Shown one piece after another: positions 26,697 to 53,593 of a stretch of 64,000 nt of DNA. Location: NCBI GenBank assembly GCA_030390025.1, contig CM059448.1:10788001-10852000 (forward strand), in the 5' to 3' direction. Numbering within the stretch: the first letter of the stretch is position 1; each line of letters opens with the position of its first letter. The notes beneath the pieces were generated by a model. It made no database searches. It had not been told where the DNA came from and saw only the letters and a list, made by a program, of their open reading frames with translations. This stretch comes from Squalus acanthias. Taxonomy: Eukaryota. The translations under genes and the position numbers were made by a program.

Positions 26697-27154
26697 GTAG
26701 GTTAAGCCTCATTCTAGGACTTGAGCTTGACTTGTAGGCTGACACTTCAACAGAGTACTGAGGAAGAGCTGTATTGTTAGAGGTGCCATCTTTCAGATGA
26801 GACATTACATCGAGGCCCTGCCCTCCGTTTCCAGTGGTTCAAGTGGATGCAAAACATCTGTTTGAAGAAGTACAACGAGTTGTTCCGGTGACCTGGTAAA
26901 CATTCCTCCCTCAACCAACACCATCAAAAATAGATTAATAGTCATGCAACCTCATTTGCTCTTTGTGGGATGCTGCTGTGCACAAGTTTCCTGCTGCATT
27001 TGCCTACAGTCACTGCACTTCAAAGTAATTTGTTGGTTGTGAAGCACTTTGGGATGCTCCAAGGACATGATAAGGGTCTATATAAACGCAAGTTCTTTCT
27101 TTCTTTCCTTATTAGTACTTCCACATACTTACACGGAATCCTCTTTTCCAATTT

Positions 27155-27169
27155 TCAGTATGGCTTCTT
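27155..27169 (-). CDS. TAPBPL: Tapasin-like exon 8, coding part KKPY* (KKxx ER-retrieval signal); exon continues to a donor after 27133
   Basis: ctcttcaacag|AAG AAG CCA TAC TGA, then 22 nt of UTR and |gtaagt. Confidence 0.75.
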   Translation of the reverse strand, partial: KKPY

Positions 27170-30100
27170 CTGTTGAAGAGATAAAAGAAGATTGGAAAAT
27201 ACTATAACATAACCTACAGAACATGTTGGCTTTAATGACCTTTAAGCTGTTCATAAACACATAGCTAAAAGATAAGGGAATAAAAAAAACCTTTATTAAA
27301 TCATACGATAGCAAAATACTGCGGATGCTGGAAATCAGATGAGACATTACATCGAGGCCCTGCCTTAAATGAATTTTATTAAATCATATTCATTTTGACT
27401 ACTTGGTTTAAATTGTTGATTCAACCTGAGCTGAACTTCAAACTCCACATCCTATCTATCAATAAAATCACCTACTTCCGCCCCCACATCATCACCTGTC
27501 TCTACCCCTACCTCACCCCCACTGCTGCGGAAGGATCTTAACCACTCCTGACTCAATTCTCAAGAGTCCTCCTCACTGGCCGCCTGCGTTTCATCTACAA
27601 CTCATTCAAAGTTCCACCACCCACATGCTGACCAGCACTAAGTTCCTCTCACCCATTAGCTCCATCTTCACGAACCTCCATTGATTTCCTGTCTCCCAAA
27701 GCATTGATTTCACATCCTCCTCATCGAATGATGCTTCTATGGACTCACCACACCCTCATCTCTGCAATCAACTCCAGTCCTACGCCCCCAGCACGTTCCC
27801 CTCAGGCCTCCTGTGCATCTTACCCTTCCCTTCGCCCCACCAACAGCAGCAGACCCATCAGCCAGCTTGGTCCTACTCCCTGAAACTCCCTCCCTAAATC
27901 TCTCTGCCTTCCTACTTTTTCCTAGCCATTATAGGCCTTCTCAAAACCCACCATGCTTTCAAAACCCACCATGCAAAACTGTGGCGGAGGGATTTCAACG
28001 CAGGCAAGTGTGAGGTCATCCATTTTGGACCAAAAAAGGATACATCCAAGTATTATTTAAATGGTGAAAAGCTAGGAACAGTGGAGGTCCAAAGAGATTT
28101 AGGAGTCCATGTACACCGATCACTAAAATGTAGTGGTCAGTTACAAAAAATAATCAAGTAGGCTAACGGAATGTTAGCCTTTATAACTAGAGGACCGGAA
28201 TATAAAGGGGAGGACGTTTTGCTACAGCTCTACAAAGTCCTGGTTAGACCACATCTGGAGTACTGTGTACAGTTCTGGGCACCGCACCTTAGAAATGATA
28301 TATTGGCCTTGGAAGGAGTGCAGCGCAGATTCATCAAAATATTACCAGGGCTCTAAGGGTTAGATTATGAGGAGAGATTACATAAACTAGGCTTGTATTC
28401 CCTGAAATATAGAAGGTTAAGGAGTGATTTGATTGAGGTTTTTAGGATTTTGAAAGGAAGCGATAGGGTAGATAGAGAGAAACTTTTTCCGTTGGTGGAG
28501 GCGTCTAGGACAAGGGGACATAACATTATAATCAGAGCCAGGCCATGCAGGAGAGAAGTTAGGAAACACTTCTTCACGCAAAAGGTGGTAGAAGTGTGGA
28601 ACTCTCTCCCACAAAAAGCGGTAGATGCTAGCTCAATTAATAATTTTAAAACTGAGATTGATAGATTTTTGCTAGCCAAGGGTATGAAGGGATATGGAGC
28701 CAAGGCAGGTAAAGGAGGTTAGGATACAAATCAGCCGTGATCTCATTGAATAGCTGAATGGCCTACTCCTGTTCCAATGGTCCCTCCTAACTCCACTACT
28801 GCTGCTTGGCACCTGTTTCCCACTCTGTGAGCACCCTTGGGATGTTTACTACCTTGATCCCTTTAGCCTTTGCTAGTCCAGGAATGCTGGGACCGACCAC
28901 AGAACCCTACTGGTGCCCCAGCTCAGGTTAGCCAATCAGCACTGAATGACCAGTTGGATATTGGAGGCTGACCAATGCTCGTGGAACCATGCAACAGCAA
29001 GAGTCTGTCAGGGGAAAAAACACAACTACACTGCCCAATATATTAAGTGATCCCCACACGTTATATCGGACTAAAATTACCTTTATCATTTTCTTACAGG
29101 TTTTCTGTGTGAGGCTTTGTGGCACTAATAAAACTCAAATTATATTGCTCTTACCTTGTTTTTTTCCATGACTGCAAAGAAAAGGATAGAGAGTCATTAG
29201 GAACTCACATCAGCACAACCATGTCATGGAGTGAACAGATAGAATATCAGTGCGAATATCACTCACAGCGCCTTTCCATTCTTTTTTTAGTGGATAAGCT
29301 AAAGAACTGGCTTCACGAGTCTTTGAGCACAAACCTTTGTTTAACTGCTGCGCTCCCACTGAGGCTTTAGACTTGAAAATAAATTGGACATTATTAGACG
29401 TCTGATGGAGGCATCTTGAGGTGAGCTTCAAACCCCAAATCATATCCATCAACAAGGCTGCCTATTTCCACCTTTGCAACAATGTCTACCTCCGTCACTA
29501 CCTCGCCTCCGATGGTGCCGAAACTCTTACCCATATCTTCGTCACCTCCAGGTTTCCCTTCTCTGTGCTGGCCACCCAAGCTCCATTCCAGTCAAGTCCA
29601 ACTTGTCCAAAATTTCAGTGCACAGATCCTTTCTGGTACGAAGCCCCTGTCCTTGCCAACATCTCCTGATTTCAAAATCCTCATCCTTGTTTACAGAATC
29701 CTCCCTGCCGCTGTCCGGTTCTGCCTCTGCAAACTCCTCCAGCCCTATGTCCCATCTCGCATCCTGCACTCTTCCAACACTGGTCTACTATGTGGCCCCC
29801 AACTCCCTCCACCCCAGCATCAGTGGCAGAGCCTTCAACCGTCTTCCTGCCCTCTTCCTAAACTCCTCTGTCCTGCTGTATCTCCCACACCTTAAAAAGT
29901 CTCCTGAAAACGTATCTCTTCACCCACATCTTCAGTCACCGTCCCTGTTTTCCAAACTCCTGCGCAGTGTCCCTTCCATCCTTAGCTGTGAAGTGCCTCC
30001 AGATATTTCACTATGTTAAAGTTTGTTGCTGATGATACCGGCTTTTTAACTCGCTGGGTTCGCTGCACCTACGTCCACCTGGTAAGCAATGTTAAAAGAA

Positions 30101-33100
30101 CCTCCTGGTCATACCATCCATGAAGCCGCTACTACTGTCGTTCTATAGGGAGAAGACCAGTTAAAGCTGCTGTAGCATAATCACATCACCACCAGCCCCT
30201 TTCACACATTCTGTTGGACCCCCACCACAACCACCTCTTAGGCAATCAGCCCAAACTATCTTCAGCAACCACAAGTGGGCTCAACGAAAGCCAACCACCG
30301 ACAGAGCATGCCAATAAAACTTGATATTATGATCTCAAACATATCATCCAATGTTCTGATGGGTCTGTGTTTTTTGCAAATAGCAAATTTCTTTGAAAAC
30401 TAATCTTGACACAGCAGCCCAACTAGATCTGTAAATCCTGTGAAACTCATAACTTCATAACATGCCTCCCGATATCTTGTTCAAAGTTACAAGCTATGAC
30501 ACATTTATAATTCTGCATTGATTTCGCTCATGGCTATTTGCTCTATCCAGTTGGGGCCTGTAGTGACATCTGTATCCCTAAAATAAAATAGCTGAGATGC
30601 TTTTAAAAGGAAACTAGATGAGTACATGAGAGAAAAGGGAATAGAAAGATATGCTGAAAGGCTGAGATGAGGCAGATGGAATGGGAGGAGACTCTTATGG
30701 AGTATAAACACCGGCACAGACGAATTGGGCCGAATGGCCTGTTTCTGTGCTGTATATTCTATGTAATTCTATGAAAGTTCTTCGCTGGTCTGATTTTCCA
30801 AATTAAACATTCGCTGGTACTGTGCTTTGCTGCGATTCTAATGATATTGAAAAGTGTTTTTACAGAGGCTAATCAACAGTGAAGGTGAATATTGTGAAGG
30901 CTGCAAAAGGAACCATCAACAGACTGTGTCACCCAATGCTGATTAACAGCACAGAACTCAGAACAGCAAATACTCACCTTTTTTCAAGTGAATCAGTAGG
31001 ATGATCACAACAGCACAGAAAAATAGGGTTATAATAGTAATTAAGATACCCAAAAGTATCTGAGGTCGTGCTGCGGGATTAAAAGAAAAAAAATCATCAG
31101 CGTCAGTGTTTTGAGACCTCTGTCACATGTAACTGCGTACATTGGAAACGGGAACTCCCCTAAAAGGAGAATGAGGAGAGCAGGAGGTTCTCCTGGTGTC
31201 CTGGCCAACACTTATCCTTCAAACCAACACCACCAAAAACTAGACAGTTTATCAATCATTTTTCACCCAATATGTTATGTGCTACATTTGTCGATATTAA
31301 ATTTGATTTGTTTACTCAGTTGCATAGCTGATCGAAATATTTAGAGTTGTCTGAACATTGAAGAAGCTTACAGTGGGTTTCTGCCTCCAAGGTCATTTAT
31401 GTTGATACAAAGCAAGGGTCCAAGCACAGACCCCTGGGATACTCCACTCGTCATCCCCTCCCCCACACCAACACTATACGTCTTACAAACACTCTTTATT
31501 TCCTACTATTTATTCATCGTCGTGTCCAGTCCCCATGTTCTACCCTGGATTCCCATGGCTTGAGTTTTGTTACAACTCTTTCTTGTTGAATCTTGCCAAC
31601 AATTTTTTAGAAAGTCCCGTTAAACTATATCATAAGGAATTCCATTGCTTTGCTTGTAATGTCCTCAAAGGAAATGTGTCAAGCAGGATCTCTCCCTTCT
31701 AAATCCATGCTAGCTGACTCTTCAGATATTACTATATAGGCCGTCCTCCAGCCTAATCCTTACAAGAGTTTCTATTATTTTATCCAGGACCTGCCATCAT
31801 CTCAGTCAGAGTTCTCTCCCTTTCCAAATGTAGGCTCATATCTTTTTTTGCTTCCAACCCTGCGGAAGAGCACAGATAGTCAATGATTTGTTCGCTAGCA
31901 TAGCAGATTGCTCAGACTTCTCAGTTCCTTGGTCCTTTTCCTGTGAGAGACGCCTTGTGTAAAGCAGCAGCTGAAACCTATCCGATAATGATATTTCCTG
32001 TTTTACTCCTATACTCTTTCTGGGTTGCTTGCCAGCTTTCCTCAGGGCATCAAGAGATATGGGGATAGGGCGGGAAAGTGGAATTGATGTAGAAGTTCAG
32101 CCATGATCTTACTGAATGGCGGAGCAGGCTCGAGGGGCCGTATGGCCGACTCCTGCTCCTAATTCTTATGTTCTCACTGTAACCCATTTCCTATATCCCT
32201 GTCAGCTCCTTTAATTACTACCGGTGTCAGCCTTGGCTCAGTGGTGGCACTGTTGCCTCTGAATCAGAAGGTCATGGATTCACTCCAGAGATCTGAGCAC
32301 GCAATCTAGGCTGACACTCCAGTGCAGTGCTGAGGGAGTGCTGAACTGTCGGAGGTGCCGTCTTTCAGATGAGACGTTAAACCGAGGGGCCCCGTCTGCC
32401 CTCTCAGGTGGATATAAAAGATCCCACGGCTGTATTCAAAGACGAAGGAGCAGAGCTCCGAAAGCTCGTAATTTCAAATAAAGCTGTTGGACTATAACCT
32501 GGTGTTGTGCGACTTCTCATTTTTGTCCACCCCAGTCCAACACCGGCATCTCCGCATCAAAGAAGAGCAGGGGAGTTCTCCCCGGTGTCCTGGCCAACAT
32601 TTATCCCTCAACCAACATCACTAAAACAGATTATTTGGTCATTATCACATTGCTGTTAGTAGGACCTTCCTGCGCACAAATTGGCTGCCGTGTTTCCTAC
32701 ATTACAACAGCAATTACAGTTCAAAGGTACTTCATTGGCTGTGAAGTGCTTTGGGATGATCTGAGGTGGTGAAAGGTGCTATATAAATGCAAATTCTTTC
32801 TTTCTTCTTTACTGAATTGCATTCATCCAAACTACCACATAAAGGTTGATATTTGTATTGTTTAAATGTTAATGTGAGAGGAAGACAGGAATCGGTCTCT
32901 CAGAAATGGCTGGGCAAGCTCATGGAGAGGAGTAGGAGACTGGCAGCAGGAGCGACCCGAGACTTGGAGGTGATTCTCACGTAGAATAAGTGTATGGTAG
33001 TGGAAGAGACCCAGGGCTTGGAGGAAACTCAAGACTCTTGTGGGGAAGAGCAGGAGATTAGAAGGGGGACACACCAGTCAAGGGAGGGAGGAGAAACAAA

Positions 33101-36100
33101 GAAAGACTTGCATTTATACAGCGCCTTTCACAACTACCGGACGTCTCAAAGTGCTTTACAGCCAATGAAGTACTTTTTGAAGTGGAGTCACTGTTGTAAT
33201 GTAGGAAACTCGGCAGAAAATTTGCGCACAGCAAGCTCCCACAAACAGCAATGTGATAATGACCAGATAATCTGTTTTAGTGATGTGAATTGAGGGATAC
33301 ATATTGGCCCCAGGACACCAGGGATAACGCCCCTGCTCTTCTTCGAAATAGTGTCATGGGATCTTTTACATCTACCTTAGAAAGCAGACGGGGCCTCGGT
33401 TTTAACGTCTCATCCGAAAGACGGCACCTCCGACAGTGCAGCACCCCCTCAGTACTGCACGAGTGTGTCAGCCTAGATTTCTGTGCTCAAGTCTCGGAGA
33501 GGTTGTCTCCGAGCCGGAATACTAACGCGGAGCCCAGTTTAACCATTGAATAGGGCTGAAAAACTGTGTCTAGGTTGCTCTTTACCAGCAGCTTTAAACA
33601 TACACGCAGGGAGGACAGAGAGTGTGGAGATCTCCCTTTATAATATTTAGGGTAATATGGAGCACTAAGAACCAGTTTGAACAAAATCAACATTGTGATG
33701 GGTCGCACTGGTTGAGCTGTAGATTCCCACTGACGGGTTGTAACCTCAAGCCCTGGCATTGCATGGCACTGGCTCTCATCCAGGGTGGTTCTCAGGAGCA
33801 CTTGGCACAACAGCTCAGTTCTCCTCGCAATGGCGCAGTGCCCCATTGTGGGGAGAAGGGAGAAAGACTGACCCATCCTCTCCTGTCAGAAGATCTTGCA
33901 GTGACATTGACAACACCCACGTGAGAATGTAGAGCCCCGAACACCACACCTAAGCAGGCGAAAGGAGAGGCTGCTGATGGAGATGGGAATTGAACTGTGA
34001 AATGGAGATACCATAGAGAGTGTAAAACTGATAGTAACAAGAGTTCCTGTAATACTTGTGTTACTAACACTTCTACACTCTCAATGGTATTTGCAAAGGA
34101 TACTGAGTATTACAAGAACTATTGGCCCAGAAATTGATCCCGGGACGCGAGAGTACGCACTGCGTACTCTCGCGTATTCCCACTCCAATTGCCGGTTTTC
34201 TGCATGCCCTGCGCATGCGCTGAAAACCGGCAATTGCTCTTTTGAAAAGGGGGCGGTTCCTCGGTGCATCGCGTGCGCGCTACAGGCTGCGCGCACGCTG
34301 TGCACTTCATGCTTTGGACGCGCAGGTAAGTACGGAAGATTTTAGAAATGTAAAAAGGAGGAGTAAGACCCACTTTTAAGAAGGTAAGTAGTGAATTAAG
34401 TATTTTTTTGAATTTTTTTTAACAGGTATATCTTTTTTAGAGACTTTAAAGACAGGTAAGTTTATTTTTATAACTTTTTAAAAGATTTTAAATTTTTTCA
34501 AAAATTTAATTTTTTATTTAAAATGGTTAATTTAATTAACTATACTTATTTTATTAATGTGATGGGTTTTTTTTTAATTTAATTGAGGTTTAGCTGTTAT
34601 TTTGGGGGGGTGTAAGATTCATAGATTTCACAGCAGGTATGTGAAACTTATGAATGGAAGATGGTGTGCTGCCATTGGCTCTAACTGAGTCACGTGATCC
34701 CACAGCTCGCACGAATTCACTACGCCGCTGGGATACGCAAGCACTGCCCAGCTGATGTCTGGAACATCAAGTTCGTGCGAGCTGGATCTGAAAAAGCACA
34801 AGCGAGGTGAGAGATCGCGGGGAAGCCTTACCCCCGCGGGAACAGAGCGAGATCAATTTCTGGGCCATTGTTTTTATTCATTCCTGGGATGTGGGAGCTC
34901 CCCCAGTGTCCTGGCCAATATTAACCCCTCAACCTAGCATCCTTTGTAAATTTTCTGAGTTGGAAATTCAGGAGAGTAACTGACACGGCCATCTCGATTC
35001 GCCCGAGGTTGGAGTGAGACGTGTCAAATTTGTGCAGCACTCAGTTTTCTCAGCTCTATCCTCCGACTGAAGGAGATTATGAGGAAACAAGGGCCTTTGA
35101 CAGGCAGAAAACTTGTACAAAAGGTGGAGCTTTGGGCCAGCGCAGGAACCAGGTTGCTTCCAAAAACTGCTCCAACATTAAGTGAATTTAGATGTTTACA
35201 CTGTATTGGAGCTGTTTCAATATTAATCCATGAGGGGAAATAAAAGACACGAACATCCTTAGGTATCCAATATTAGAAACATAGGAACAGGAGCAGGCCA
35301 TTCAGCCCCTCGAGCCTGTCCCACCATTCAATGAGATCATGGCTGATCTGCGACCTAACTCCGTATACCCGCCCAAGCCCCACATCCCTTAACACCTTTG
35401 GTTAACAAAAATCTATCAATCTCTGATTTAAAATGAACAATTGATCTAGCATCAATTGCCGTTTGTGCAAGAGTTCCAAACTTCTACCACCCTTTGTGTG
35501 TAGAAGTGTTTCCTAATTTCACTCCTGAAAGGTCTGGCTCTAATTTTTAGACTATGCCAATTAGACCTAGAATCCCCAACCAGTGGAAATAGTTTCTCTC
35601 TTATCTACCCTATCCGTTCCCCTTAATATCTTGAAAACTTCGATCAGATCACTCCTTAACCTTCTAAATTCTAGGGAATACAACCCTAATTTGTGTAATC
35701 GCTCCTCATAATTTAACCCTTGAAGTCCGGGTATCATTCTGGTAAACCTACGCTGCACTCCCTCCAAGGCCAATATATCCTTCTTAAGGTGTGGTGCCCA
35801 GAACTGCTCTCAGTGCTCCAGGTGTGGTCTAACCAGGGCTTTGGTTAATCCATATTGACTCTGTGAAACACCTTGGAACTATTTTAAGTGAACAGTATCA
35901 TAGGATTCTCACCATTGCTTACCTTCTACATTTACTTGGACGTAACGTTTGATCGGTTTCTCCAAGCTGGCATGCTCCACTCGACAGGTGTACGTAACGC
36001 CGTTGTCCCTGAGGGAGGCCGTGAACCGGAAGTAACTGGTCAAGTTGTAGGTGCCGTCCGTGTTCTGCTTGTGGGGCGAGAAGACAACGTTGGTCATGTA

Positions 36101-39100
36101 GACGGGCAGCAGGTGCCCCTCGCCCTGCTGCCGCAGCCACTTCATCGTTACGTCAAGTGGGTAATACCGCCTCGCCTCACATGCCAGCTTCTGCTCGTCC
36201 CCTTCCTTCAGGGAAAGTGAATCGGGGTGCATTAAGACAACGGGAGACTCTACAAAGAAAGCAACAAATGACTTTGTCAAAACAGGTCACGACAACTGGA
36301 CGTACATTCATGATTTACAGGCCTGCCGACGCTTGGGCTTTGCTGCTGTCAATCCCTTTAATTGTAATTAAATTGGAATAATGCAGTCTTCCACACGGGA
36401 CCCGAGTGTGAACATGTCGCTGTAGCAACCAATAACCAACATGGGAACTGCCAATCTAAAAAAAAAATCCCCTTTAAATAATTTTTCCTGCACAAATCTT
36501 TTTTTTTATAGTAATATTTTCCCATACAATCACATGCTAAATACATATACTCTTAAAAATGCTGGTGAGAAGAGCATGTGTTTAATGTACTGGGGGGAAC
36601 GTGGTGCTCTGGAGTATCAGGACTCAGACTGTAGCGCACATCTGTGAAGCTTCAAATGTATTTTATTGGCTGTGAAAGTGCTTTGGGAGGTCATGAAAGG
36701 TGCTAATAATAACATAAGAAATAGGAGCAGGAGTCGGCCAATCGGCCCCTCGAGCCTGCTCCGCCATTCAATAAAATCATGGCTGATCTGATCTTGGCCT
36801 CAACTCCACTTTCCTGCCCGCTCCCCATAACCCTTGACTCCCTTATCGTTCAAAAATCTGTCTATCTCCACCTTAAATATATTCAATGACTCAGCCTCCA
36901 CAGCTCTCTGGGGTAGAGAATTCCAAAAATTCACGACCCTCTGAGAGAAGAAATTCCTCCTCATCTCCATTTTAAAAGGGCGCCCCCTTATTCTGAAACT
37001 ATGCCCCCTAGTTCTAGATTCCCCCACTAGGGGAAACATCCTCTCTGCATCTACCCTGTCCAACCCCCCTCAGAATCTTATATGTTTCAATAAGATCACC
37101 TCTCATTCTTCTAAACCCCAGTGAGTATAGGCCCAACCTGCTCAACCTCTCCTCGTAAGACAACCCTTTCATCTCCGGAATCAACCTAGTGAACCTTCTC
37201 TGAACTGCCTCCAATGCAAGTATATCTTTCCTTAAATAAGGAGACCAAAACTGCACGCAGTACTCCAGGTGTGGTCTCACCAACGCCCTGTACAGTTGTA
37301 GCAAGGCTTCCCTACTTTTATACTCCATCCCTAAATAAATGCAAGTTCTTTCTTCTGCCAACCTTTTGCTGAATCCTCTGTCTCTACTGTTCTCCTTGTT
37401 TTAGTGTGGTCAGCAAATCCGATGTTTGGTTTCCAAGTAATTTATGTAGATGTGAAAAAAAACAGGGAACCATCCCTCAGGGATTTAACTTCACACCTAC
37501 CCTCAGATCTGACATTACACCTCTCATAAGGACTAGCTCAGCTATAGCTGTAAAACACCCTGCTACAATAAATGGGAGTAACCTTGTCCTCAGCTGAGCT
37601 GGATTCCAACCATGCTGATTGCTGATATTCAGGGTGAAGATTTTGCCAGGTACTAATTGTAACTACCTGCACTGTACACTGTTAAAATGCACATATTCAG
37701 CGGGATTTTTTTTTAAATTCGTCCATGGGATGTGGGCGTCGCTGGCAAGGCCAGCATTTATTGCCCATCCCTAGTCGCCCTTGGGAAGGTGGTGGTGGGC
37801 CGCCTTCTTGAACCTGCTGCAGTCCGTGTGGTGAAGGTACTCCCCACAGTGCTGTTAGGGAGGGAGTTCCAGGATTTTGACCCAGCGACGATGAAGGATC
37901 GGCGATATACTTCTAAGTCAGGATGGTGTGTGACTTGGAGGGGAACTGGAGGTGGTGGTGTTCCCATGCGCCTGCTGCCCTTGTCCTTCTAGGTGGAAGA
38001 GGTCGCGGGTTTGGGAGGTGCTGCCGAAGAAGCCTTGGCGAGTTGCTGCAGTGCATCTTGTAGATGGTACACACTGCAGCCACGGTACCACCTGGTGGTG
38101 GAGGGAGTGAATGTTTAAGGTGGTGGATGGGGTGCCAATCAAGCGGGCTGCTTTGTCCTGGATGGTGTCGAGCTTCTTGAGTGTAGACTGAAATAATCAA
38201 TCCAGGTACTACCTCTGGAGCAGAGACCCTGGTTTATTTCTGGAGACAGCAAGATCCGAACTGTCCTTTCAATTTTCTGCTAATTTCCACACTGTTCCGT
38301 TACTCAAATAAATTCGAATCGTCATTTCCCCTGACCCGTTTGTTTTCAGTACCGGTTAATTCATCAGCATCAGTATCTTACCCAAAATCTCCAAGTTGAT
38401 GGTGTGCGTTCCGAAGAGTGGAGGGACATATACGGAACAGGTGTAGGATCCCTCATCTTTCATGCCAACATTTCTTATGCGGATGGAAGCGTTCCCATTC
38501 TTGATCTGGTCCATGAACACTTCAATCCCTTTCTCGATGTGTTCAACCTGCTGATGTCGCCCATTGTAGGAGAACAATTTCTTCTTGGTCCCTTTGTGCT
38601 GATATCGCCAGTCAATGTTGAAGTCCGTGCTGTGATCAATTTTGTAGCCACAGTCCAGAATCAGGTCTTGCTTCAGTTTGGTTCTGATCATTGGGGTGCT
38701 GGTGCGGACAATGTAGCTCACTAACAAGGACAAAGGAACAGCCATTATCTTGCATTTCACACCAGTTATTTACTGTTAATAACTCAGGTAAAAACACAAA
38801 TTGTATTTTCTTCATAAGCTCACCATTTCAAATATCTAGTCATACGCTGTTTATGCCACATAGTTTTTGGTTCTTTTGCTTTATTATTGGAATAGAGGGT
38901 TTATGACACTCAATCTAAGTATTAATAAACAAATTAGTAACTGCATGCATATATGTATAAAGAAAATAAGTGTTAATAGACAAGGTAATTGGCCCAGAAA
39001 TTGATCTCGCTCTGTTCCCGCGGGGGTAAGGAGCAGGCGCGATCTCTCACTCCGCGTTGGCTTTTTCAGATCCAGCTCGCACGAACTTGATGTTCCAGAC

Positions 39101-42100
39101 ATCAGCTGGGCAGTGCTTGCGTATCCCACCGGCGTAGTGAATTCGTGCGAGCTGTGGGATCACGTGACTCAGTTAGAGCCAATGGCAGCACACCATCTTC
39201 CATTCATAAGTTTCACATACGTGCTGTGAAAGCTATGAATCTTACACCCCCCCAAAATAACAGCTAAACCTCAATTAAATTTTTTTAAAAAACCATCACA
39301 TTAATAAAATAAGTATAGTTAAATAAATTAACCATTTTAAATAAAAAATTAAATTTTTGAAAAAATTTAAAATCTTTTAAAAAGTTATAAAAATAAACTT
39401 ACCTGTCTTTAAAGTCTCTAAAAAAGATATACCTGTTAAAAAAAATTCAAAAAAATACTTAATTCACTACTTACCTTGTTAAAAGTGGGTCTTACTCCTC
39501 CTTTTTCCATTTCTAAAATCTTCCGTCCTTAGCTGCGCGTCCAAAGCATGAAGTGCACAGCGTGCGCGCAGCCTGTAGCGCGCACGCGATGCACCGAGGA
39601 ACCGCCCCCTTTTCCAAAGACCAAGTGCCGGTTTTCAGCGCATGCGCAGGGCATGCAGAAAACCGGCAATTGGAGAGAGAATACGCGAGAGTACGCAGTG
39701 CGTACTCTTGCGCAGCGGGATCAATTTTTGGCCCAATAAGTAAATTGACTATAATCTTAGAGTGCTGAAAAAATATGTATTATGGACAATATTTGCCTTT
39801 CATGGAACCAGACTTATAAGGGAGGTTCACTAGACAGATAAGGGACCCGTGCACCACAATATCATCTCTTGAAATGGACAGTAACAGAAGGGGAGGGATG
39901 GCATGAGATTTGAGGAGATAGAGGACCTATCAGGGGAGAAAGGGGAGCTCCACAGGCTTGAATTGAAAGAAATGGTATAAGAAAGGGACACCAGCAGGGA
40001 TTAAGTGTAGAAGTTAACAAAGGAGGATTCAAGTAATTCTAGGGGACACTCAGAGGCTAAACAGGCCAGGAAGCACGGCTGGAGAGGTTGCAGATAACTC
40101 TTACCGTGACTTTTGCCCAAGGCATAAACGGGGTAGTATGACTCTTAATTATACCTTGTAAAGTGCTGCTCAAGATATAGTAATTGTGTTGATCCTTGCT
40201 TGTGCTGAATAAACATTTAATCACTGCCGCCAATACAGGTCAATGTCGAATCATTTGGAATCAAAGATCTCACAGAGAGATTCTTACACGATAGCAAAAT
40301 ACTGCAGATGCTGGAAATCCGAAATAACAACAGAAAACGCTGGAAAAACTCAGCAGGCCAGGCAGCATCCGTGGAGAGAGAAACAGAGTTGACGTTTCAG
40401 GTCGATGACCTTTCATCAGAACTGGGAAGAGCTGGAAATCAAATAGATTTAAGGCCAGGGTAAAGCTGGGAAAAGGGGGAGGGGATAAAGGAACAAAGGA
40501 GGAGATGAAGAGACATTAAGAGACATTAAGAGATATGCAAGGCTAGAGGTGGTGTTAATGTGACAGATTAAGGCTGAATGAAGTGTGAAATCTACTGGCA
40601 GAATGAAGGACAGCTGCCAGCTTCTAGGAGGAAAAAAAAGGTGGGGGGGACAAATAAAAGGGTGGATAAAATAAAATATAAATGTGATTGGAGCTGAGGT
40701 TATGATCTAAAATTGTTGAACTCGATATTGAGTCCAGAGGGCTGTAGCGTGCCTAAACGAAAGATGAGGTGCTGTTCTTACAAGAGATTCTTACACTCTG
40801 TCCGAACTTATACTGGGCTGGTTAGCTTCCTACTGGCATTAGAACGTTACCTTGAACTAACAGAGTGTCTGTACTGCCAATGGATGAATCTTCATCGTCA
40901 GTTTTTGTTTTACTGTTCTCAGCCTTCGGGCTATCGGGTGCTTCTATCTTCCTCATGAAGCTGGTTACGGTGAATCTGCCATTTCTGTGCTTTACAGACA
41001 CTGTGAACCATATGTCCTCACTGGACTCCTCACCCTGATGTGGCCAGGGCACGTGGATGCCAAAGGTAGAATGCCTGCTAATTTCACAATCCAATTCGTC
41101 AGGTTCCCCATCCACATACTGGAAAATGTCTAATGAAGACTCTGTAAATAAAAGGAAAGATTCACACACTAATTAGACAGCAAGTTAACAGAAGATGGTG
41201 CAGATGTCTTACATAAAGAAGGGTTCCAATACTAAACATGCAATCTCTCTGAGCCTCCTAAGTAGTAAGATTCTGCAAATTCTTCTGTTGTACCTTGTGA
41301 TTTAAAGAAAAACAACTCGGGCATTCATATATTGAAATATCACTCTTACAACCTGAGGTGTAACCTTTTAAACTGAAAATCTACCTCTCCCAATCAACTG
41401 CATCAACCATTACCAATTCCATTTGACCAGCTATTTTTAAAAGACTGACTTCGAACCAGTGCATTCTGACTCTCCCAAAAGACTTCTTCAAACTAATCAC
41501 TGGCAATTAAGTCCAATTTTTGACTGAAACAAGTTGCCCTTACTGAGCAATCCTCAGGCATGGAGGCGTGCATATAAATCTCTGTTACAATTTCAGATGT
41601 TGCACAGAACTGTTTTCTCTCTCAATGGATTCTTAGCCATACCTTGTCCTCTATGATCCAGAAAGAACTTGCATTTCTGTAGCGTCTTTCACGACCTCAG
41701 GACGTCTCAAAGCGCTTTGCAGCCAATGAAGTACTTTTGAAGTGGAATCACTGTTGTAATGTGGGAAACGCAACAGCCAATTTCTGTACAGCCAGGTCCC
41801 ATGAACAGCAATGTGAAAATGACCAGATAATCTGTTTTTGTTATGTTGGTTGCAGGAGAAATATCGGCCAAGACACCAGGGATAACTCCCCTGCTCTTCT
41901 TCAAAATAGTGCCATGGCATCTTTTACGTCCACCTGAGAGCGGACGGGGCCTCGGTTTAACTTATCAACTGAAAGACGGCACCTCCGACAGTGCAGCACT
42001 CCCTCAGCACTGCACTGGAGCGTCAGCCTGGATTTTGTGCTTAAGTCTCTGGAGTGGGACTTGAACCCACAACCTTCTGACTCAGAGGCGAGTGTGCGAC

Positions 42101-45100
42101 CCACTGAGAGCCACGCCTGACACACATACAGCTGACAGAAGCTGCACTCTTATTGATAATCTGTCCTTCACGTGACTTGAGAACAAACAACTACCCTTAC
42201 TTGCAGGATTTACTGGAGTTCTCCCCGGTGTCCTGGCCAATATTTATCCCTCAACCAAACATAACAAAAACAAACAGATTATCTGGTCATTATCACATTG
42301 CTGTTTGTGGGAGCTTGCTGTGCGCAAATTGGCTGCCACGATTCCCACATTACAACAGTGACTGCACTTCAAAAAGTACTTCATTGGCTGTAAAGTGCTT
42401 TGAGACGTCCGGTGGTCATGAAAGGCGCTATATAAATGCAAGTCTGTCTTTACCTGGAATGATAGCATTCTCTTTGGATTGGCAGAATATTAAAATACGG
42501 AGCAGAGCTTTAGCAGGCTAAGTAAAGCAACTCAGAATTTTTATTTATAATCAAATGGAAAGTGAAGCACAAATAGAATTTGGTAAATACTACTGAGTAT
42601 CAATATTAAACATAAATGTAATGAGCAAACTCCATAATGGGTTAATTATCCTCTTTTGGGAAATGTCTTTGGGGAAACAATAACCTCTGATTGATGAATT
42701 CTGCACCTTTCAGTCTCGGTCAGTTGCACTTGAATCACGATGAATACAGTGTAAGCCTCACATTACAGAGACACCACCATCTGACCAACTCTCAGAACTA
42801 AGAACAATTGGACGATAAAACCAATGCAGTATTTTAAACCCATTGGGGCACTGGAGCATCCATCCTCAGAAATCTCCACTGCTTCCTTCCCTGGCAAGAG
42901 CAAATAAAAGGACTTCCCAAACCATTTTGAACGATTACCCTGAGTATAGGAGGTGCTCGCCCCCGAGAATTAATTTACTGATGTGCTTGATCTGTTCACA
43001 CTACCTTTAACTTTAAAAGTAATGGCCTCCTCATTTGTATTGACATCACCAAAGAGCAGTAATGCCTTCCTCTTGATGGTTGTGGGCCCAAACACGTGAG
43101 TCTCTTCACTTTGTTTCTCTTCCAGAAACATGCAGTCCAACCTTCTGTATGGGACCACGTGTCCATTCTGTGCCCGCACAATTCCTTTAAAAAAAAAGGA
43201 AAAGAGGAGTCGAAAATAAAGCTTTTAACGCAGAATGCATACCATCACTCTGCACATTACAGTGAAGAAATTTCTCCTCATCTCAGGCTTAAATGGCCAA
43301 CCCCTTTATTCTGTGAATGTGACTCCGTGTACTAGATTCCCCAGCCAGGGGAAACATTTTCCCAGCATTAACCTTGTCAAGCCCCTTAAGAATTTTATAT
43401 GTTTCAATTAGATCACCTCTCATTCTTCTAAACTCTAAGGAATATAGGCCTAGTCTACTCAATCTCTCCTCATAAGGCAATCCCCTCAGGAACCAGTCCA
43501 GTGAACCTTCGCTGCACTCCCTCTAAGGCAAGTATGTCTTTCCTTAGGTAAGGAGACCAGAACTGTGCATAATACTCCAGGTGTGGCCTCACCAATGCCC
43601 TGTATAATTGTAGTAAGACTTCTTTACTCTTATACTCTAATCCCTTTGTAACAAAAGCTAACATACCATTTGCTTTCCTAATTGCTTGCTGAAAAATCTA
43701 GTAACTGTCATGGTCATTTTCCTAGTGCCAGCCCACAAATTACCCAATTTATTGAATTCCATTATCACAACTTGCTACAGTGGGATTGAACTCACAACCT
43801 CACGGTTACCAGTCTGGTACCATGTCCGTTAAGCTACTGTACCCACTGATAGTCCAAAACTAGGGGCCATGAGTATCAGACAGTCACCAATAAATCCAGC
43901 AGGGAATTCAGGAGGAATTTCTTTACCCAGAGAGAGTGGTGAGAATGTGGAACTCCCTACCACAGGGAGTGGTTGAAGTGAATAGTATAGATGCATTTAA
44001 GGGGAGGCTAGATAAGATTATGAGGGAGAAGGGAATAGAGGGTTACGCTGATAGATTTAGATGAGGAAAGACGGGAGGAGGCTGGAGTGGAGCATAAACG
44101 CCGGCATAGACCAGTTGGGGCAAATGGCCTGTTTCGGTGCTGTACCTTCTATTTAATTCTATGTAACACTAACTAATGTCAAGACCAATAGAAATACAAA
44201 GGAGAGCTCCCTCCAGTGGCTGACTGGTTAAATGCTCCCTTGTTATCATACTAAACCCAAGACCATAAAGTGCCTGGGCAGTAATTGGGATGATAAAACT
44301 ACCCTCAGAGTCTCTAAGATAGTGAGGAGAAAAATCAACAAGAGTTTCTGCTAATGATTGCTATCTATTGCTCCCGGGTGGACAGCAACAGGCTCAGCTG
44401 CACTGGTTAAATAGCCATCAATACTCTCTGTCTAGGCTCACATATAAAGAATGGGCATTTGGCAGATACCAGGAGGTTGCTGATGTCCATAGATCAATCC
44501 CCAGAAAGGAAGTCACCACCTTCAGGAGATTCAAGAAGAATTTGTAAAACTAAATAAGAAGGAATTGTTATTGGTAAACGTTGCATTTCCCACATTACAA
44601 CCAGGGACTTCACTTCAAAAGTATTTCATTGGCTGTAAAGCGCTTTGAGACGTCCGGTGGTCGTGAAAGGCGCTATAGAAATGCAAGTCTTTCTGTCTTT
44701 CTATCCATCATGCTGGAGTACGTTAGTACTGATGAATGGAGCATTTTCCTTTTTTTCAACCCATGGCTTCAACAAACACCCCCAGATGGGAAATGGAAGG
44801 CAAATGGTACGCTGGCCTTCATTACAAGAGGATTTGAGTACAGGAGTAAAGAAGTCTTACTCCAATTATATAGGACCTTGGTGAGACCATACCTGGAGTA
44901 CTGTGTACAATTTTGATCTCCTTACCTAAGGAAGGATATACTTGCCATAGAGGGAGTGCAACGAAGGTTCACGAGATTGATTCCTGGGATGGTGGGACTG
45001 CCGTACGAGAAGAGATTGAGTAAACTAGGCCTGTATTCTCTTGAATTCAAAAGAATGAGAGGGGATCTCAGTGAAGCATACAAAATTATTACAGGGCTTG

Positions 45101-46902
45101 ATAGGATGGATGCTGGGAGAATGTTTCCCTTGGCTGGGAAGTCTAGAGCCAGGGGCCACAGCCTCAGGATAAAGGGTAGGCCATTCAGGACTGAGATGAG
45201 AAGAAATTTCTTCACACAGAGGGTGGTGAATCTTTGGAATTCTCTACCCCAGAGGGCTGTGGAGGCTCAGTCATTGGGTATATTCAAAACAGAAGTCGAT
45301 AGATTTCTGACTAGTAAAGGCATCAAGGGATATGGCGATAGGGTCGGTGAATGGAATTGAGGCAGATCAGCCATGATCTCATTGAATGGCGGAGCAGGCT
45401 CGACGGGCCGAATGGCCTACTCCTGCTATTTCTTATGTTCTTATTAGATATAGCAATGAGTCAGAGGGAGATTAAAGCTCCCACGACATCGACCCAATAA
45501 AAAGGTTTATTCATAACCTCAGAAAAGCACAAGTGTAAAATTTCCATTCCCCACAGCAGCCAATCTCATGGGCCGCGATTTCGGCAACTGAGGCGGATCT
45601 GGGGCGGCCGGGGTCGGGAGCTCCTGACCCGCTGTCAATCTTTTCTATTTTGACAACTGACCCGCCTCCGATCCCGCCCTCTCAGCACCGGCAAAATTCC
45701 GGCCATGGATTCTCTGAGTGAAATTCCCAATTTAATCCTAAATTATGGTGAGTGCTCATGGCCAAATACATTTGCTCTAGGACCTTTATAGAAAGGAAAA
45801 AACTTTATCCCATCAATCTTCATTAGATTGGAACTCATTCTCTTAGAAAGTGTTTATGATTTTAATAGACAAAAGAACCTGCCTTGATATAACACCTCAT
45901 CACATTGCTCAGAAACACCCCCACTTTACCTCCTATGCAATGAACGGCTTCGAACCAATGTCATTATGTAGTCGCATGTTGCAGCAATTTTGCGCACAGC
46001 AAGATCTCACAAACAGCAATGAGGTGAATGACCAGATAATGACCAGTTTTTGGTGATGCTGGTTAAGGGATAAATGTTGGCTATGACATCAGGGAGAACT
46101 CTCTGTTCTTCTTTAAATAATACTGTGGGATCTTTAACATCTAGCTGAATCTCTGGAAGGGGGATAGTACATGAAAGTGAAGTTGAGGTTGAAGATCAGC
46201 CATGATCTTATTGAATGGCAGAGCAGGCTCGAGGGGTACTCCTACTCCCAATTTATGTTCTTATGATCTAAAGGAGTTTAGTTTTATTTCTCATGTAAAG
46301 CACAGCGCCTGTGACAGTGCAGCACTCCTGCAGCACTGCACTCTGGTGCCCCAGAGGGGATAGTACAACGCCACTGTGCCAAGCTGATCTAAAAATACCA
46401 AGGGAAATCTTTACAAACACGTTTACAAGGTCATAACACATAACAACCAGAAGATTTCTTACCCCATTGCCCCTTTTCTAATGCATTTTACGGGGAACAT
46501 TGTATGCGGGTTTCTAATCTCACCTCACCCGTGGAAAGGGGTGGGTCCCAAAGACCGTGTTATTCTCCCATCATTGACACCCGTGGGCCAATGGTGTTCT
46601 GACTTGCCCTTGATGAAGTGTTTTTATATTCAGTGTGGTTCTTTTGGAGGCTATCACTAGGAGCCTAATGGTGCACTTGTACTGCCCAAATCAACGCTTC
46701 ATTTTATCCTGTGCTTGCTCTATCTAGAAGGATCCCATGAGCATTTTTAGTTTCATTTTCAAAACATCCCTTCGGCGGCCGATTTCAAACACAAATACAA
46801 TCATTAAATAAATGTCAGTTCTGCTCCTTTAGCCTGGAAGCGTCTGATCGTCTTACCGGCAGCAAGAATCCAAAAATGCAAAAGGAATATCTTCAAAAAC
46901 AT
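27155..46902 (-). CDS. TAPBPL: Tapasin-family protein (tapasin-related/tapasin-like), complete spliced CDS of 8 exons, 1308 nt, 435 aa
   Basis: Exons 46902-46857, 43184-43005, 41141-40851, 38720-38382, 36249-35923, 31070-30978, 29171-29155 and 27169-27155 all have GT-AG boundaries and join in frame. Architecture is signal peptide/N domain/IgV/IgC1/TM/KKPY*. The motif DWRYQHKG matches tapasin EWRRQHLG and TAPBPR EWRLQHKG. The exact paralogue is not resolved, so the symbol is family-level. Confidence 0.9.
27978..28780 (+). mobile_element. CR1 LINE 3' fragment
   Basis: [25 protein letters not shown]. Confidence 0.88.
29155..29171 (-). CDS. TAPBPL: Tapasin-like exon 7, 17-nt cytoplasmic micro-exon (V)MEKNK
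   Basis: ccttttctttgcag|TCATGGAAAAAAACAAG|gtaaga; phase 1->0 bridges the TM exon to the last coding exon. Confidence 0.72.
30978..31070 (-). CDS. TAPBPL: Tapasin-like exon 6, transmembrane segment ([30 protein letters not shown])
   Basis: Strong acceptor tttttcttttaatcccgcag|, donor AAG|GTGAGT, 93 nt, phase 1-1, ~23-aa hydrophobic run. Confidence 0.9.
32223..32810 (+). mobile_element. tRNA-derived Deu-domain SINE (SacSINE1/AmnSINE1-like)
   Basis: A box TGGCTCAGTGG, core GAGGTGCCGTCTTTCAGATGAGACGTTAAACCGAGG, tail TATAAATGCAA-TCTTTCTT. Confidence 0.8.
34124..34866. mobile_element. MITE copy 2 (inverted relative to copies 1 and 3), in intron 5 of the tapasin-like gene
   Basis: Perfect 16-bp TIRs GGCCCAGAAATTGATC...GATCAATTTCTGGGCC, ATT/ATT TSD. 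Confidence 0.9.
35277..35842 (-). mobile_element. CR1 LINE 3' fragment
   Basis: ORF 35567..35773 [14 protein letters not shown]. Confidence 0.88.
35923..36249 (-). CDS. TAPBPL: Tapasin-like exon 5, IgC1 domain
   Basis: [17 protein letters not shown]...[10 protein letters not shown]...[10 protein letters not shown]; 327 nt, phase 1-1, ctttgtag|AG and AAG|GTAAGC. Confidence 0.95.
36711..37331 (-). mobile_element. CR1 LINE 3' fragment
   Basis: ORFs 37014..37361 and 36800..37063. Confidence 0.88.
38382..38720 (-). CDS. TAPBPL: Tapasin-like exon 4, IgV-like domain
   Basis: [25 protein letters not shown]; 339 nt, phase 1-1, ttgttag|TG and G|GTAAGA. Confidence 0.95.
38991..39734. mobile_element. 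MITE copy 3, in intron 3 of the tapasin-like gene
   Basis: Same TIRs, near-identical to copy 1, flanks ATT/AAT. Confidence 0.9.
40290..40782 (-). mobile_element. Penelope-like fragment with a 14-bp TSD
   Basis: Homologous to 13167-13600; AGAGATTCTTACAC duplicated at 40276-40289 and 40783-40796. Confidence 0.75.
40851..41141 (-). CDS. TAPBPL: Tapasin-like exon 3, N domain part 2 (LDCEISRH...VPWP...WFTVSV)
   Basis: Acceptor tatttacag|AG, donor AAG|GTAACG, 291 nt, phase 1-1; CEIS motif of the tapasin family. Confidence 0.9.
41661..42123 (-). mobile_element. Deu-domain SINE, full length
   Basis: B box GGTTCAAGTCC and the same core and tail. Confidence 0.82.
43005..43184 (-). CDS. TAPBPL: Tapasin-like exon 2, N domain part 1 (RLDCMFLEE...RKALLLF...ITFKVK)
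   Basis: Acceptor ttttttaaag|GA, donor AAG|GTAGTG, 180 nt, phase 1-1; resembles tapasin IECWFVED..RPGALLL. Confidence 0.88.
43262..43690 (-). mobile_element. CR1 LINE fragment
   Basis: ORFs 43470..43664 and 43289..43480. Confidence 0.85.
44795..45443 (+). mobile_element. CR1 LINE 3' fragment
   Basis: ORF 44956..45360; ttcttatgttctta tail. Confidence 0.88.
45571..45704. mobile_element. Short MITE
   Basis: TIR GGCCGCGATTT / AAATTCCGGCC, ATG/ATG flanks. Confidence 0.6.
46857..46902 (-). CDS. TAPBPL: Tapasin-like exon 1, signal peptide [15 protein letters not shown](G)
   Basis: ATG at 46902, hydrophobic 15-mer, donor G|GTAAGA in phase 1 matching exon 2; ISRE about 65 nt upstream. Confidence 0.88.
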
Positions 46903-46967: not shown

Positions 46968-47037
46968 ACTTTCGGTTTCGTGAATCCGATGCGGAAGTTT
47001 CTGGTAATTTTCAGTTTGAAGGAGCATCAGTTTCGGG
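46968..47037 (-). promoter_or_regulatory. Interferon-responsive proximal promoter of the tapasin-like gene: ISRE, Ets, GAS-like and IRF half-sites
   Basis: CGAAACCGAAAGT (46968-46980, minus) fits GAAANNGAAA; GCGGAAGT 46991-46998; TTCTGGTAA 46999-47007; AAACTGAAAA 47008-47017 (minus). Confidence 0.7.
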
Positions 47038-53125: not shown

Positions 53126-53593
53126 TCATTTGCTTTGATTTGCTCGATTCTTCTGGGTAGCTTCTTCAGCTTTTCTCTTTCGCCACTCACAAATGTCTGC
53201 AAAGTCACAAGTCCGACATTTCCACGCCTCCTCAATATCCACCCCCTTGGCCTCCCTCTGGCCCTTCCAGAAGGAGCAATAATGCTTCAGCTCACTTTTA
53301 ACCCACTCCTCTTCAAAGCGCACCACTTCTGTTCCGATCACAGAGGCATCTGCTTGGTAACAGTATTCTATCTTCATGGTGTCGACGGTGGGGAGCTCCG
53401 CGTACGTCAGGTTCAACAACATTAAATCCAGAAGGTCACCGAATGTGTTTATGGTAAACCCCGCCTTCTGGGCATGCACCATAACCTCTAACCCAAAGGT
53501 CTGCTCTGTCCGTAAGTGAAGCTGGTGAGTGATGGTGTCCTTGTTCAGTTGGCCTTTGATCATAGCCTCAAAGAGGAGTTTGTATATACTGAC
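53126..53593 (-). CDS. EXO5: EXO5 exon 6 with the C-terminal CxxCxxxxxC Fe-S motif and stop codon
   Basis: ttttattatcag|GTC; 468 nt to TGA; within ORF 53126..53650. Confidence 0.95.
   Translation of the reverse strand, partial: VSIYKLLFEAMIKGQLNKDTITHQLHLRTEQTFGLEVMVHAQKAGFTINTFGDLLDLMLLNLTYAELPTVDTMKIEYCYQADASVIGTEVVRFEEEWVKSELKHYCSFWKGQREAKGVDIEEAWKCRTCDFADICEWRKRKAEEATQKNRANQSK

Follow-up and report, generated by a model that had tools for sequence, protein, structure and literature searches.

Gene Structure and Assignment

The window, by which we mean the whole 64,000-nt stretch of Squalus acanthias DNA analyzed here (contig CM059448.1, positions 10,788,001 to 10,852,000), contains a gene whose 435-aa reading frame matches three named shark tapasin-related proteins at 80–82%, and which has the tapasin-family layout of IgV, IgC1, transmembrane segment, and dilysine tail. 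Coordinates are collected in Table 1. Outside the sharks, the best matches were from coelacanth, lungfish, turtles, and frogs. Two paralogs occur in the same genome: C1758, which is nearest to lungfish tapasin (60% in the IgV domain), and C617, whose N-terminal domain is common with teleost tapasin-related proteins. TAPBPL has been described as a third tapasin-family gene, present in fish, frogs, reptiles, birds, and marsupials (PMC5824609). The shark gene resembles it in its N-terminal domain, IgV, IgC1, transmembrane core without lysine, and ER-retrieval-type tail, as well as in being a third paralog beside two others (PMC5824609). BLAST scores and features suggest that the gene is TAPBPL-type, and they set it apart from this shark's TAPBP and TAPBPR.

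An earlier note on this DNA had called the gene probably interferon-inducible, with which the consensus ISRE 66 nt 5' of the start codon is consistent; the window holds two matches to the ISRE consensus (0.32 expected), and both flank exon 1.

Table 1. Features of the TAPBPL-type gene and copies of the MITE family in the window.
Feature	Position	Strand	Details
Consensus ISRE	46968..46979	-	66 nt upstream of start codon
Exon 1 coding part (start codon, signal peptide)	46857..46902	-	match to N-termini
Exon 2	43005..43184	-	180 nt, phase 1-1
Exon 3 (N-terminal domain)	40851..41141	-	291 nt, phase 1-1; homology to P0001–P0016; donor of predicted skip
MITE copy, intron 3	38991..39734	-	744 bp, sense to gene, subfamily 2, flanks ATT/AAT
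Exon 4 (IgV)	38382..38720	-	339 nt, phase 1-1; Pfam V-set 4e-14; RNA contigs
Exon 5 (IgC1)	35923..36249	-	327 nt, phase 1-1; Pfam C1-set 4e-13; RNA contigs
MITE copy, intron 5	34124..34866	+	743 bp, antisense to gene, subfamily 1, 16-bp terminal inverted repeats
Exon 6 (transmembrane)	30978..31070	-	93 nt, phase 1-1; acceptor of predicted skip
Exon 7 (cytoplasmic tail)	29155..29171	-	17 nt; predicted, splice signals and homology
Exon 8 (KKPY end, stop)	27133..27169	-	predicted, splice signals and homology
Third copy, same MITE family	3839..4582	-	beyond gene 3' end; 96% to intron 5 copy, inverted to it

An Inverted MITE Pair Around the Ig Exons

Exons 4 and 5 (IgV and IgC1; 666 nt) are enclosed by two MITE copies in opposite orientation that are 94.9–95.2% identical to each other, one lying 270 nt before the exon 4 acceptor and the other 1056 nt past the exon 5 donor. 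These values bear out the earlier description of two near-identical copies of about 744 bp, inverted to each other and spaced 270 nt and about 1.05 kb from the exons. The target duplication at the intron 5 copy is ATT/ATT. Missing from that description were the third MITE copy, the two small tail exons, and 14 weaker inverted pairs.

Folding predicts a duplex of 713 bp between the two copies, with a longest perfect run of 154 and an energy of −1312 kcal/mol when paired vs. −513 when folded separately (about 800 in favor of the duplex); the long dsRNA stem proposed earlier could thus form, as far as folding predictions go. An Rfam search of positions 25000–48000 gave no matches. Within the gene the pair is the strongest inverted one (1186 bits vs. 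459 for the next), the 14 weaker pairs also bracket exons, and no rival copy of the MITE was found inside either flanking intron. One of 20 sampled 10-kb stretches held a pair of similar score, and none held a pair at 95% over >200 nt. Such a pair is rare for a single gene, yet tens are expected genome-wide.

In the intron 3 copy, which lies in the sense direction, 39474 and 39402 look like donors and 39433, with a polypyrimidine tract, like an acceptor; the antisense intron 5 copy has a single donor-like site.

RNA Contigs Across the Exon Junctions

Positions 34835–39030 were compared with assembled contigs from four of 24 listed sequencing runs, X1 and X5 being taken as RNA and X19 and X21 as DNA; none of the 24 is recorded as RNA, and 18 were guessed to be so. 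Contigs of X1 and X5 have a mean depth of 9.5–15, with library type unrecorded and rare variants dropped. In X1, a single 2448-nt contig includes exons 5 and 4 without mismatch and extends past the exon 5 donor for 647 nt and past the exon 4 acceptor for about 1133 nt, into sequence outside the compared stretch. X5 contigs of 500 and 899 nt also cross both ends of the exon block. By its length, the sequence beyond the two exons presumably consists of exons 3 and 6. The contigs support exons 4 and 5 and the junction between them, and the canonical AG and GT at 38720 and 35923 are both used.

As such contigs are built, a common alternative joint is expected to break them. The contigs are unbroken across the exon 4 acceptor and the exon 5 donor in both RNA runs, which argues against an efficient stem that diverts >5% of transcripts into a 666-nt circle and/or a 213-aa skipped form, leaving less full-length chaperone, as an unselected recent accident. 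Also against it, if weakly, none of 297 candidate proteins of 30–239 aa matched P0001 at E<=1e-8, in a clustered collection where the species may lack annotation. We consider this reading unlikely, although 713 predicted base pairs (154 in the longest perfect run), two introns free of competing copies, and an arm just 270 nt from the acceptor all speak for it, as do the enrichment of inverted non-autonomous MITE pairs around newt circRNAs (PMC11872487) and the occurrence of the same skip in human TAPBPR, as the epsilon form (PMC4008236). The normal mRNA is dominant in the X1 and X5 samples; neither a back-splice nor a skip nor editing came to light, but contigs of depth 10–15 are blind to minor forms.

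The same contigs bear on a second alternative, that any effect of the insertions comes from splice signals of the sense intron 3 copy instead of from pairing, with a 30-nt cassette between acceptor 39433 and donor 39402 as well as donor 39474 giving occasional exonization. The two consensus donors and the acceptor in the sense copy, compared with a lone donor-like site in the antisense one, would allow this. However, beyond the exon 4 acceptor the RNA contigs continue for 375 and about 1133 nt, a length at which an intervening high-copy repeat would probably have interrupted them, and these splice sites would be hidden once the two copies paired; exonization is, in our estimate, decidedly improbable.

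Other readouts of the runs are dominated by the rest of the repeat family. The 15 joints listed of 1,364 include neither the back-splice nor the normal exon 4–5 joint, and both this table and that of loose ends (24 of 5,240 listed) are swamped by other repeats, so that absence from them carries no weight. Contigs of MITE bodies are not assignable to this locus, given thousands of near-identical copies. Changes of A>G were seen at 29 and 23 places and of T>C at 33 and 32 places in the RNA runs, which were no richer than the DNA runs (50 and 57, and 55 and 53, respectively); these counts stem from other repeat copies and are uninformative for this stem.

Class, Abundance, and Age of the MITE Family

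The MITE has a 16-bp terminal inverted repeat starting with GG and no coding capacity, its longest stop-free stretch being 98 codons. A 3-bp target duplication, mostly ATT or AAT, flanks the copies: its two sides agree fully in 22 of 40, the first base is A and the third base matches in 33 of 40, and the middle base often differs. Among the top 30 of 150 scored DDE_Tnp_4 transposase loci, the first 112 bp of the MITE match 20 at 88–94%, and both MITE ends are found in four. PIF/Harbinger elements in the narrow sense have a TWA duplication, in contrast to the A-W-T targeted here, and an A-N-T pattern is given for Pangu (PMC4482050). In its terminal inverted repeats, A-N-T 3-bp duplication, absence of coding capacity, and ends in common with DDE_Tnp_4 loci, the shark MITE is like non-autonomous PHIS elements, among which its target site resembles that of Pangu (PMC4482050). 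It is a non-autonomous Harbinger-type (PHIS) element, Pangu-like in this one respect.

Exact matches to one 31-mer of the family number 7,223 across the genome (control, 0). On a Poisson expectation, 42 inverted pairs within 6 kb and 70 within 10 kb would arise by chance genome-wide. The first 100 matches listed contained one pair at the shorter distance and two at the longer, and pairs L070 and L071 were both verified as full-length inverted pairs. Because the family exceeds 7,000 copies and tens of pairs are expected, the pair around exons 4 and 5 is explicable by chance.

The two copies belong to different subfamilies. The intron 5 copy is 99.0% identical to 19 group 1 copies and 95.0% to nine group 2 copies, and for the intron 3 copy the values are 99.1% (group 2) and 95.4% (group 1). 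Of 36 columns that differ between them, 30 are subfamily differences; the copies have five and four private changes, and convergence between them involves no more than three columns. As each is about 99% identical to dispersed members of its own subfamily, the insertions were most likely independent. An origin by local inverted duplication or gene conversion was ruled out on the same subfamily grounds, and a composite transposon capturing exons 4 and 5 was rejected, with only one high-identity locus for these exons among those listed for the genome.

DNA run X19 comes from a relative about 95–98% identical. Its 896-nt contig tracks the unique flank to 34869, and the remaining 635 nt are no match for the MITE end; the intron 5 insertion is apparently absent there. 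At the intron 3 site, contigs of relatives stop at 38978 and 38886, short of scoring the insertion. Depth at the MITE end is low in X19 and X21 relative to X1 and X5, a weak hint that the subfamily of the intron 3 copy is rare in these relatives.

Reading Frames of the Predicted Circle and Skipped Form

Exons 4 and 5 joined give 666 nt (339 + 327, phase 1-1) or 222 codons, with six in-frame Met per lap and no stop around the circle, in keeping with the earlier note. Their removal would keep a 213-aa frame ending in KKPY, so the proposed N-domain–transmembrane–KKPY reading frame is also confirmed as a prediction. The special meaning attached to the endless frame did not survive comparison: all 15 contiguous blocks of exons 2–6 give stop-free circles, as do the IgV and IgC1 exon pairs of both paralogs (705 and 666 nt), near neither of which a young copy of this MITE was found. 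Because the exons are phase-1, the endless frame is a by-product; the stop-free, in-frame property is not above chance and is uninformative.

A further proposal is that the locus has been co-opted, with an interferon-induced, translated tandem-Ig circle or a dominant-negative N-domain–transmembrane–KKPY isoform tuning MHC class I loading. The ISRE upstream of exon 1, the six Met per lap, the ER-retrieval-type tail kept in the skipped form, and reports of rolling-circle translation for some circles (PMC11724312) are compatible with it. Against it, both copies remain about 99% identical to dispersed subfamily members with convergence in at most three columns, one of them seems to be absent from a close relative (X19), and the stop-free frame is common to every block of exons 2–6. 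Loss of the IgC domain abolishes the binding of human TAPBPR to MHC class I, and its epsilon form was found in one cell line only, THP-1 (PMC4008236). A circle product, if translated, would lack a signal peptide and be unlikely to give a folded Ig protein. We judge co-option extremely improbable. Also very improbable is the reading of the recent pair as an interferon-inducible stem, acquired by one shark lineage, that acts as a switch in the third tapasin gene, with the full chaperone as one output and, as the other, an ER-retained isoform lacking the Ig domains together with a circle whose endless frame could be translated.

Comparison With Known Systems and Interpretation

Inverted Alu pairs promote back-splicing in human (PMC11263572, PMC11872487, PMC8516420), and in the newt Pleurodeles waltl circRNAs are flanked by inverted pairs of hAT, LTR, and nMITE elements, non-autonomous MITEs being enriched (PMC11872487). 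Near-identical young pairs are the sort most linked to circRNA formation (PMC11872487, PMC8516420), and circRNAs tied to young, species-specific transposons have been argued to be splicing by-products (PMC8516420). The shark locus is like these in having young inverted copies in both flanking introns, a strong predicted duplex, and a lineage-specific origin; unlike them, it is a candidate predicted from DNA geometry. Its 744-bp Harbinger-type arms are longer than Alu, and they differ from the newt case, where abundant Harbingers are outside the main circRNA-flanking classes (PMC11872487). For the skip, TAPBPR epsilon offers the same exon arrangement (exon 4 IgV, 5 IgC, 6 transmembrane), with exons 4 and 5 skipped and the N-terminal domain joined in frame to the transmembrane segment and tail (PMC4008236). 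However, epsilon comes from a paralog, no flanking repeat is named as its cause in the available part of that report, and the shark isoform, which is predicted only, would keep a KKxx tail (PMC4008236). The main text and 294-character supplement of a bamboo shark liver circRNA paper, whose circRNA table lies outside them, contain no occurrence of tapasin or TAPBP (PMC7759564), and searching by title or abstract start found no literature on this locus or on a shark tapasin circRNA.

We consider it probable that the pair consists of two young copies of an abundant Harbinger-type MITE, inserted independently and without selection, that would yield at most traces of circular, skipped, or edited RNA beside the normal mRNA. 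Should the polymerase get past the second copy while intron 3 is still in the transcript, the copies would pair to form a stem some 710 bp long, a likely ADAR substrate, with exons 4 and 5 looped out; the exon 5 donor might then occasionally attack the exon 4 acceptor to give a circle, or exon 3 might occasionally be joined to exon 6 to give the skip. The majority of transcripts probably avoid this, because intron 3 may be spliced before the partner copy, transcribed 3.5 kb past the end of exon 4, has been made, and because such stems are melted by editing and helicases. The earlier note's expectation of stem-driven circles, skipping, and editing keeps its physical premise (a predicted 713-bp duplex, the ISRE) but loses its frame argument, and chance insertion probably accounts for the pair itself; the meaning given to the pair was overstated. 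The bracketing of exons 4 and 5 is ordinary, and trace by-products are possible.

That exons flanked by young inverted repeats give rise to circRNA, mostly at low levels, is well described, and with tens of such pairs expected in this genome the locus carries limited weight as matters stand. Its merit is that it would make a clean test: one strong pair of young insertions with no competing copy, a relative apparently lacking one of them, and an immune gene bearing an ISRE. If the circle or the skipped form were abundant and inducible, a DNA-transposon MITE would have added a new isoform to TAPBPL, a chaperone that has been little studied, and if the switch reading were true, the locus would offer a natural presence/absence experiment on a DNA transposon making both a circRNA and an isoform in the antigen-loading pathway.

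The Inverted MITE Pair and Its Host Gene

Exons 4 and 5 of the tapasin-like gene, which encode its V-set and C1-set domains, are bracketed by two MITE copies in opposite orientation (94.9–95.2% identical; Table below). The coordinates and geometry described in the earlier note hold up on measurement. Both copies are about 744 bp long; 270 nt separate the end of the upstream one from the exon 4 acceptor, and 1056 nt (previously ~1.05 kb) separate the exon 5 donor from the start of the downstream one. The two exons sum to 666 nt, a stop-free frame of 222 codons with six Met, and an in-frame skip would, as claimed, keep the KKPY end (computed frame, 213 aa).

Features of the locus, in window coordinates.
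Feature	Position	Strand	Remarks
MITE copy, intron 5	34124–34866	+	downstream of exon 5
MITE copy, intron 3	38991–39734	-	upstream of exon 4
MITE splice sites	39402–39474	-	intron 3 sense copy: two consensus donors, one acceptor
Third MITE copy	3839–4582
Exon 5	35923–36249	-	327 nt; C1-set domain
Exon 4	38382–38720	-	339 nt; V-set domain
Second ISRE-like match	46749–46760	-	intron 1; with 46968–46979 flanks exon 1
Consensus ISRE	46968–46979	-	66 nt 5' of start codon
EXO5 (exonuclease V), last exon	53129–53683	-	Pfam Exo5, 3e-25
EXO5, likely upstream exons	near 55400–55723 and 58297–58869	-
GC-rich minisatellite	6587–8916		~28-bp units; higher-order period near 498 bp

The host gene lies on the minus strand and has eight coding exons, whose joined frame of 435 aa shares 80–82% identity with proteins from three sharks that are annotated as tapasin-like or tapasin-related. 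Two further tapasin-family loci occur in the genome: one, on contig C1758, has its nearest match in lungfish tapasin (60% across the IgV exon); the other, on contig C617, has an N-domain that resembles teleost tapasin-related proteins. Outside cartilaginous fishes, the Heptranchias ortholog (P0001) finds its best matches in coelacanth, lungfish, turtles, and frogs. TAPBPL, described as a third family member without the transmembrane lysine and able to bear an ER retention signal (Grimholt, 2018; PMC5824609), fits the host gene, judged by match pattern and features. No publication on this locus was found in the literature covered, which excludes subscription papers. EXO5, likewise on the minus strand, is found ~6 kb upstream of the gene.

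A consensus splice donor is found 22 nt past the stop codon (27133), so the 3' UTR is probably in a further exon, with an acceptor-like site near 25678. Annotated orthologs (P0005, P0009) include a whale shark form that stops right after exon 5 and an epaulette shark form with a shortened exon 3; none of the homologous proteins P0001–P0016 lacks both Ig domains. The ISRE consensus matches twice in the window, where 0.32 matches would be expected; 4 of 100 shuffles reached two. The gene had been called probably interferon-inducible; the ISRE near the start codon makes inducibility plausible.

Origin and Frequency of the Insertions

The MITE ends in terminal inverted repeats of 16 bp, flanked by 3 bp that mostly read ATT or AAT; in 22 of 40 copies the two flanks are identical, and in 33 they share the first and third base. 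The middle base often differs between the flanks, with AAT/ATT in 10 of the 40 (L002–L030, L035, L070–L073, and the window), which hints at a base brought in with the element's end. Among the best 30 of 150 DDE_Tnp_4 transposase loci, 20 have element ends that match the first 112 bp of the MITE at 88–94%, and four have both MITE ends, ~3 kb apart. The MITE is a non-autonomous PHIS (Harbinger-type) element and has the A-N-T target given for the Pangu group, in contrast to the TWA of PIF/Harbinger proper (PMC4482050). Many transposase copies (L074–L103) with ~390-aa open frames have ends in common with the MITE, and the 63,886 transposase candidates from a first look at the genome suggest that this family is very large and has been active recently.

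Compared with two groups of copies (19 and 9 members), the intron 5 copy shows 99.0% identity to the first and 95.0% to the second, and the intron 3 copy shows the reverse (95.4% and 99.1%); the groups are the best matches of each copy, a choice that biases toward high within-group identity. Thirty of the 36 differences between the two are subfamily differences, with five (intron 5) and four (intron 3) private changes; at three columns the copies agree while the group majorities differ. Derivation of one copy from the other is ruled out, as each is ~99% like its own separate subfamily group. In X19, a DNA run of a relative with 95–98% identity in the flanks, a contig of 896 nt tracks the unique flank to 34869 and its other 635 nt mismatch the MITE end, so we read the intron 5 site there as apparently empty.

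One MITE 31-mer has 7,223 exact matches in the 3.71-Gb genome (control, 0), and older relatives of at least 600 bp occur in 4 of 20 sampled 10-kb stretches, chosen at round coordinates on large contigs. The pair tops the 20 inverted pairs of at least 100 nt in 25.6–47 kb (1186 bits; runner-up 459), 15 of which bracket exons; in the sampled stretches, 8 of 20 hold some inverted pair and 1 of 20 one of similar score. Such a MITE pair is rare in any one named gene but expected in a genome-wide scan, since the Poisson expectation is 42 inverted pairs whose copies lie no more than 6 kb apart and 70 at up to 10 kb. Assuming the usual vertebrate exon density, roughly 5–20 would enclose exons. The first 100 matches listed contain one inverted pair within 6 kb, two within 10 kb, and two same-orientation pairs within 10 kb, all four of the 10-kb pairs confirmed full-length; among these matches (first 49 Mb of G000 C1) there is no sign that inverted pairs are depleted. 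Copies there appear clustered, with 11 inverted pairs within 50 kb vs. 4.9 expected.

The Stop-Free Frame

Because introns 1–6 are all phase 1 (the intron after exon 7 differs), each of the 15 contiguous blocks within exons 2–6 yields a stop-free circle and an in-frame skip; the sole new codon opens with the donor exon's last G, so a stop is impossible. The IgV + IgC1 exon pairs of the paralogs, at script-predicted boundaries, likewise give stop-free circles (705 and 666 nt), and near them we found no young MITE copy, only 74–77% fragments on C617. The open circular frame is gene architecture and no sign of selection. Co-option of the pair for a function seems very improbable. Some circles are reported to undergo rolling-circle translation (PMC11724312); a product here would have no signal peptide, which would make disulfide formation in its Ig domains unlikely.

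Pairing and Splicing

Co-folding the two copies predicts 713 base pairs, with a longest perfect run of 154 bp; the energy is -1312 kcal/mol, compared with -513 when each copy folds alone and -553 in a same-orientation control. The long dsRNA stem proposed earlier is thus predicted on condition that both arms coexist in nascent RNA, where they should pair. According to reviews, inverted-repeat stems promote back-splicing, which competes with normal splicing, trails it in efficiency, and is restrained by ADAR1 and DHX9 (PMC11263572). In newt, the surroundings of 9,799 circRNAs are enriched in inverted pairs of nMITE, hAT, and LTR elements (PMC11872487); mammalian circRNAs follow transposons that are young and species-specific, and the case has been made that they are largely by-products of splicing (PMC8516420). 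Bamboo shark liver yielded 4,558 circRNAs, with no mention of tapasin in the text of that paper (PMC7759564). A precedent for the skip predicted here is human TAPBPR epsilon, a form with the same skip that was found in one cell line; MHC class I binding is lost when the IgC exon is missing (PMC4008236).

All 24 sequencing runs found are contigs, of unrecorded library type and none recorded as RNA; four (X1, X5, X19, X21) were compared over 34835–39030. X1, taken as RNA, has a 2448-nt contig (depth 9.5) that joins exon 5 to exon 4 with no mismatches and extends 647 nt beyond the exon 5 donor and ~1133 nt beyond the exon 4 acceptor, outside that interval. In X5, also taken as RNA, a 500-nt contig (depth 13.5) runs 341 nt past the exon 5 donor and an 899-nt contig (depth 15.4) runs 375 nt past the exon 4 acceptor; both break within exon 5. 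The contigs of the two runs are linear products of splicing, whose extensions fit exons 6–8 plus 3' UTR and exons 3–2 by length; the 5' arm of X1 is ~600 nt longer than the coding exons account for.

In graph contigs a common alternative joint is expected to break the contig. Sizeable, if accidental, diversion of transcripts to the back-splice (35923->38720) or the skip (40851->31070) is what the predicted stem might favor, yet a common form of either would be expected to break the X1 and X5 contigs at the exon 5 donor or exon 4 acceptor, and we consider it unlikely; minor forms escape contigs of this depth (9.5–15.4), from which rare variants are dropped. The normal exon 4–5 joint is itself absent among the 15 of 1,364 joints listed, and the absence of a short-isoform protein (30–239 aa) matching P0001 among 297 candidates is a weak negative. 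An acceptor and a donor in the sense-oriented intron 3 copy frame a possible 30-nt cassette exon; exonisation out of this copy is, in our judgment, a still more doubtful account of any effect on the gene.

The claim of a circle or skip isoform is thus partly supported, as a possibility, on an observation that is confirmed. We consider it probable that the copies are two independent, recent, and unselected insertions that may pair transiently in nascent RNA, where a trace of circle, skip, or editing would be possible, with the normal mRNA remaining the dominant product of this tapasin-family gene.
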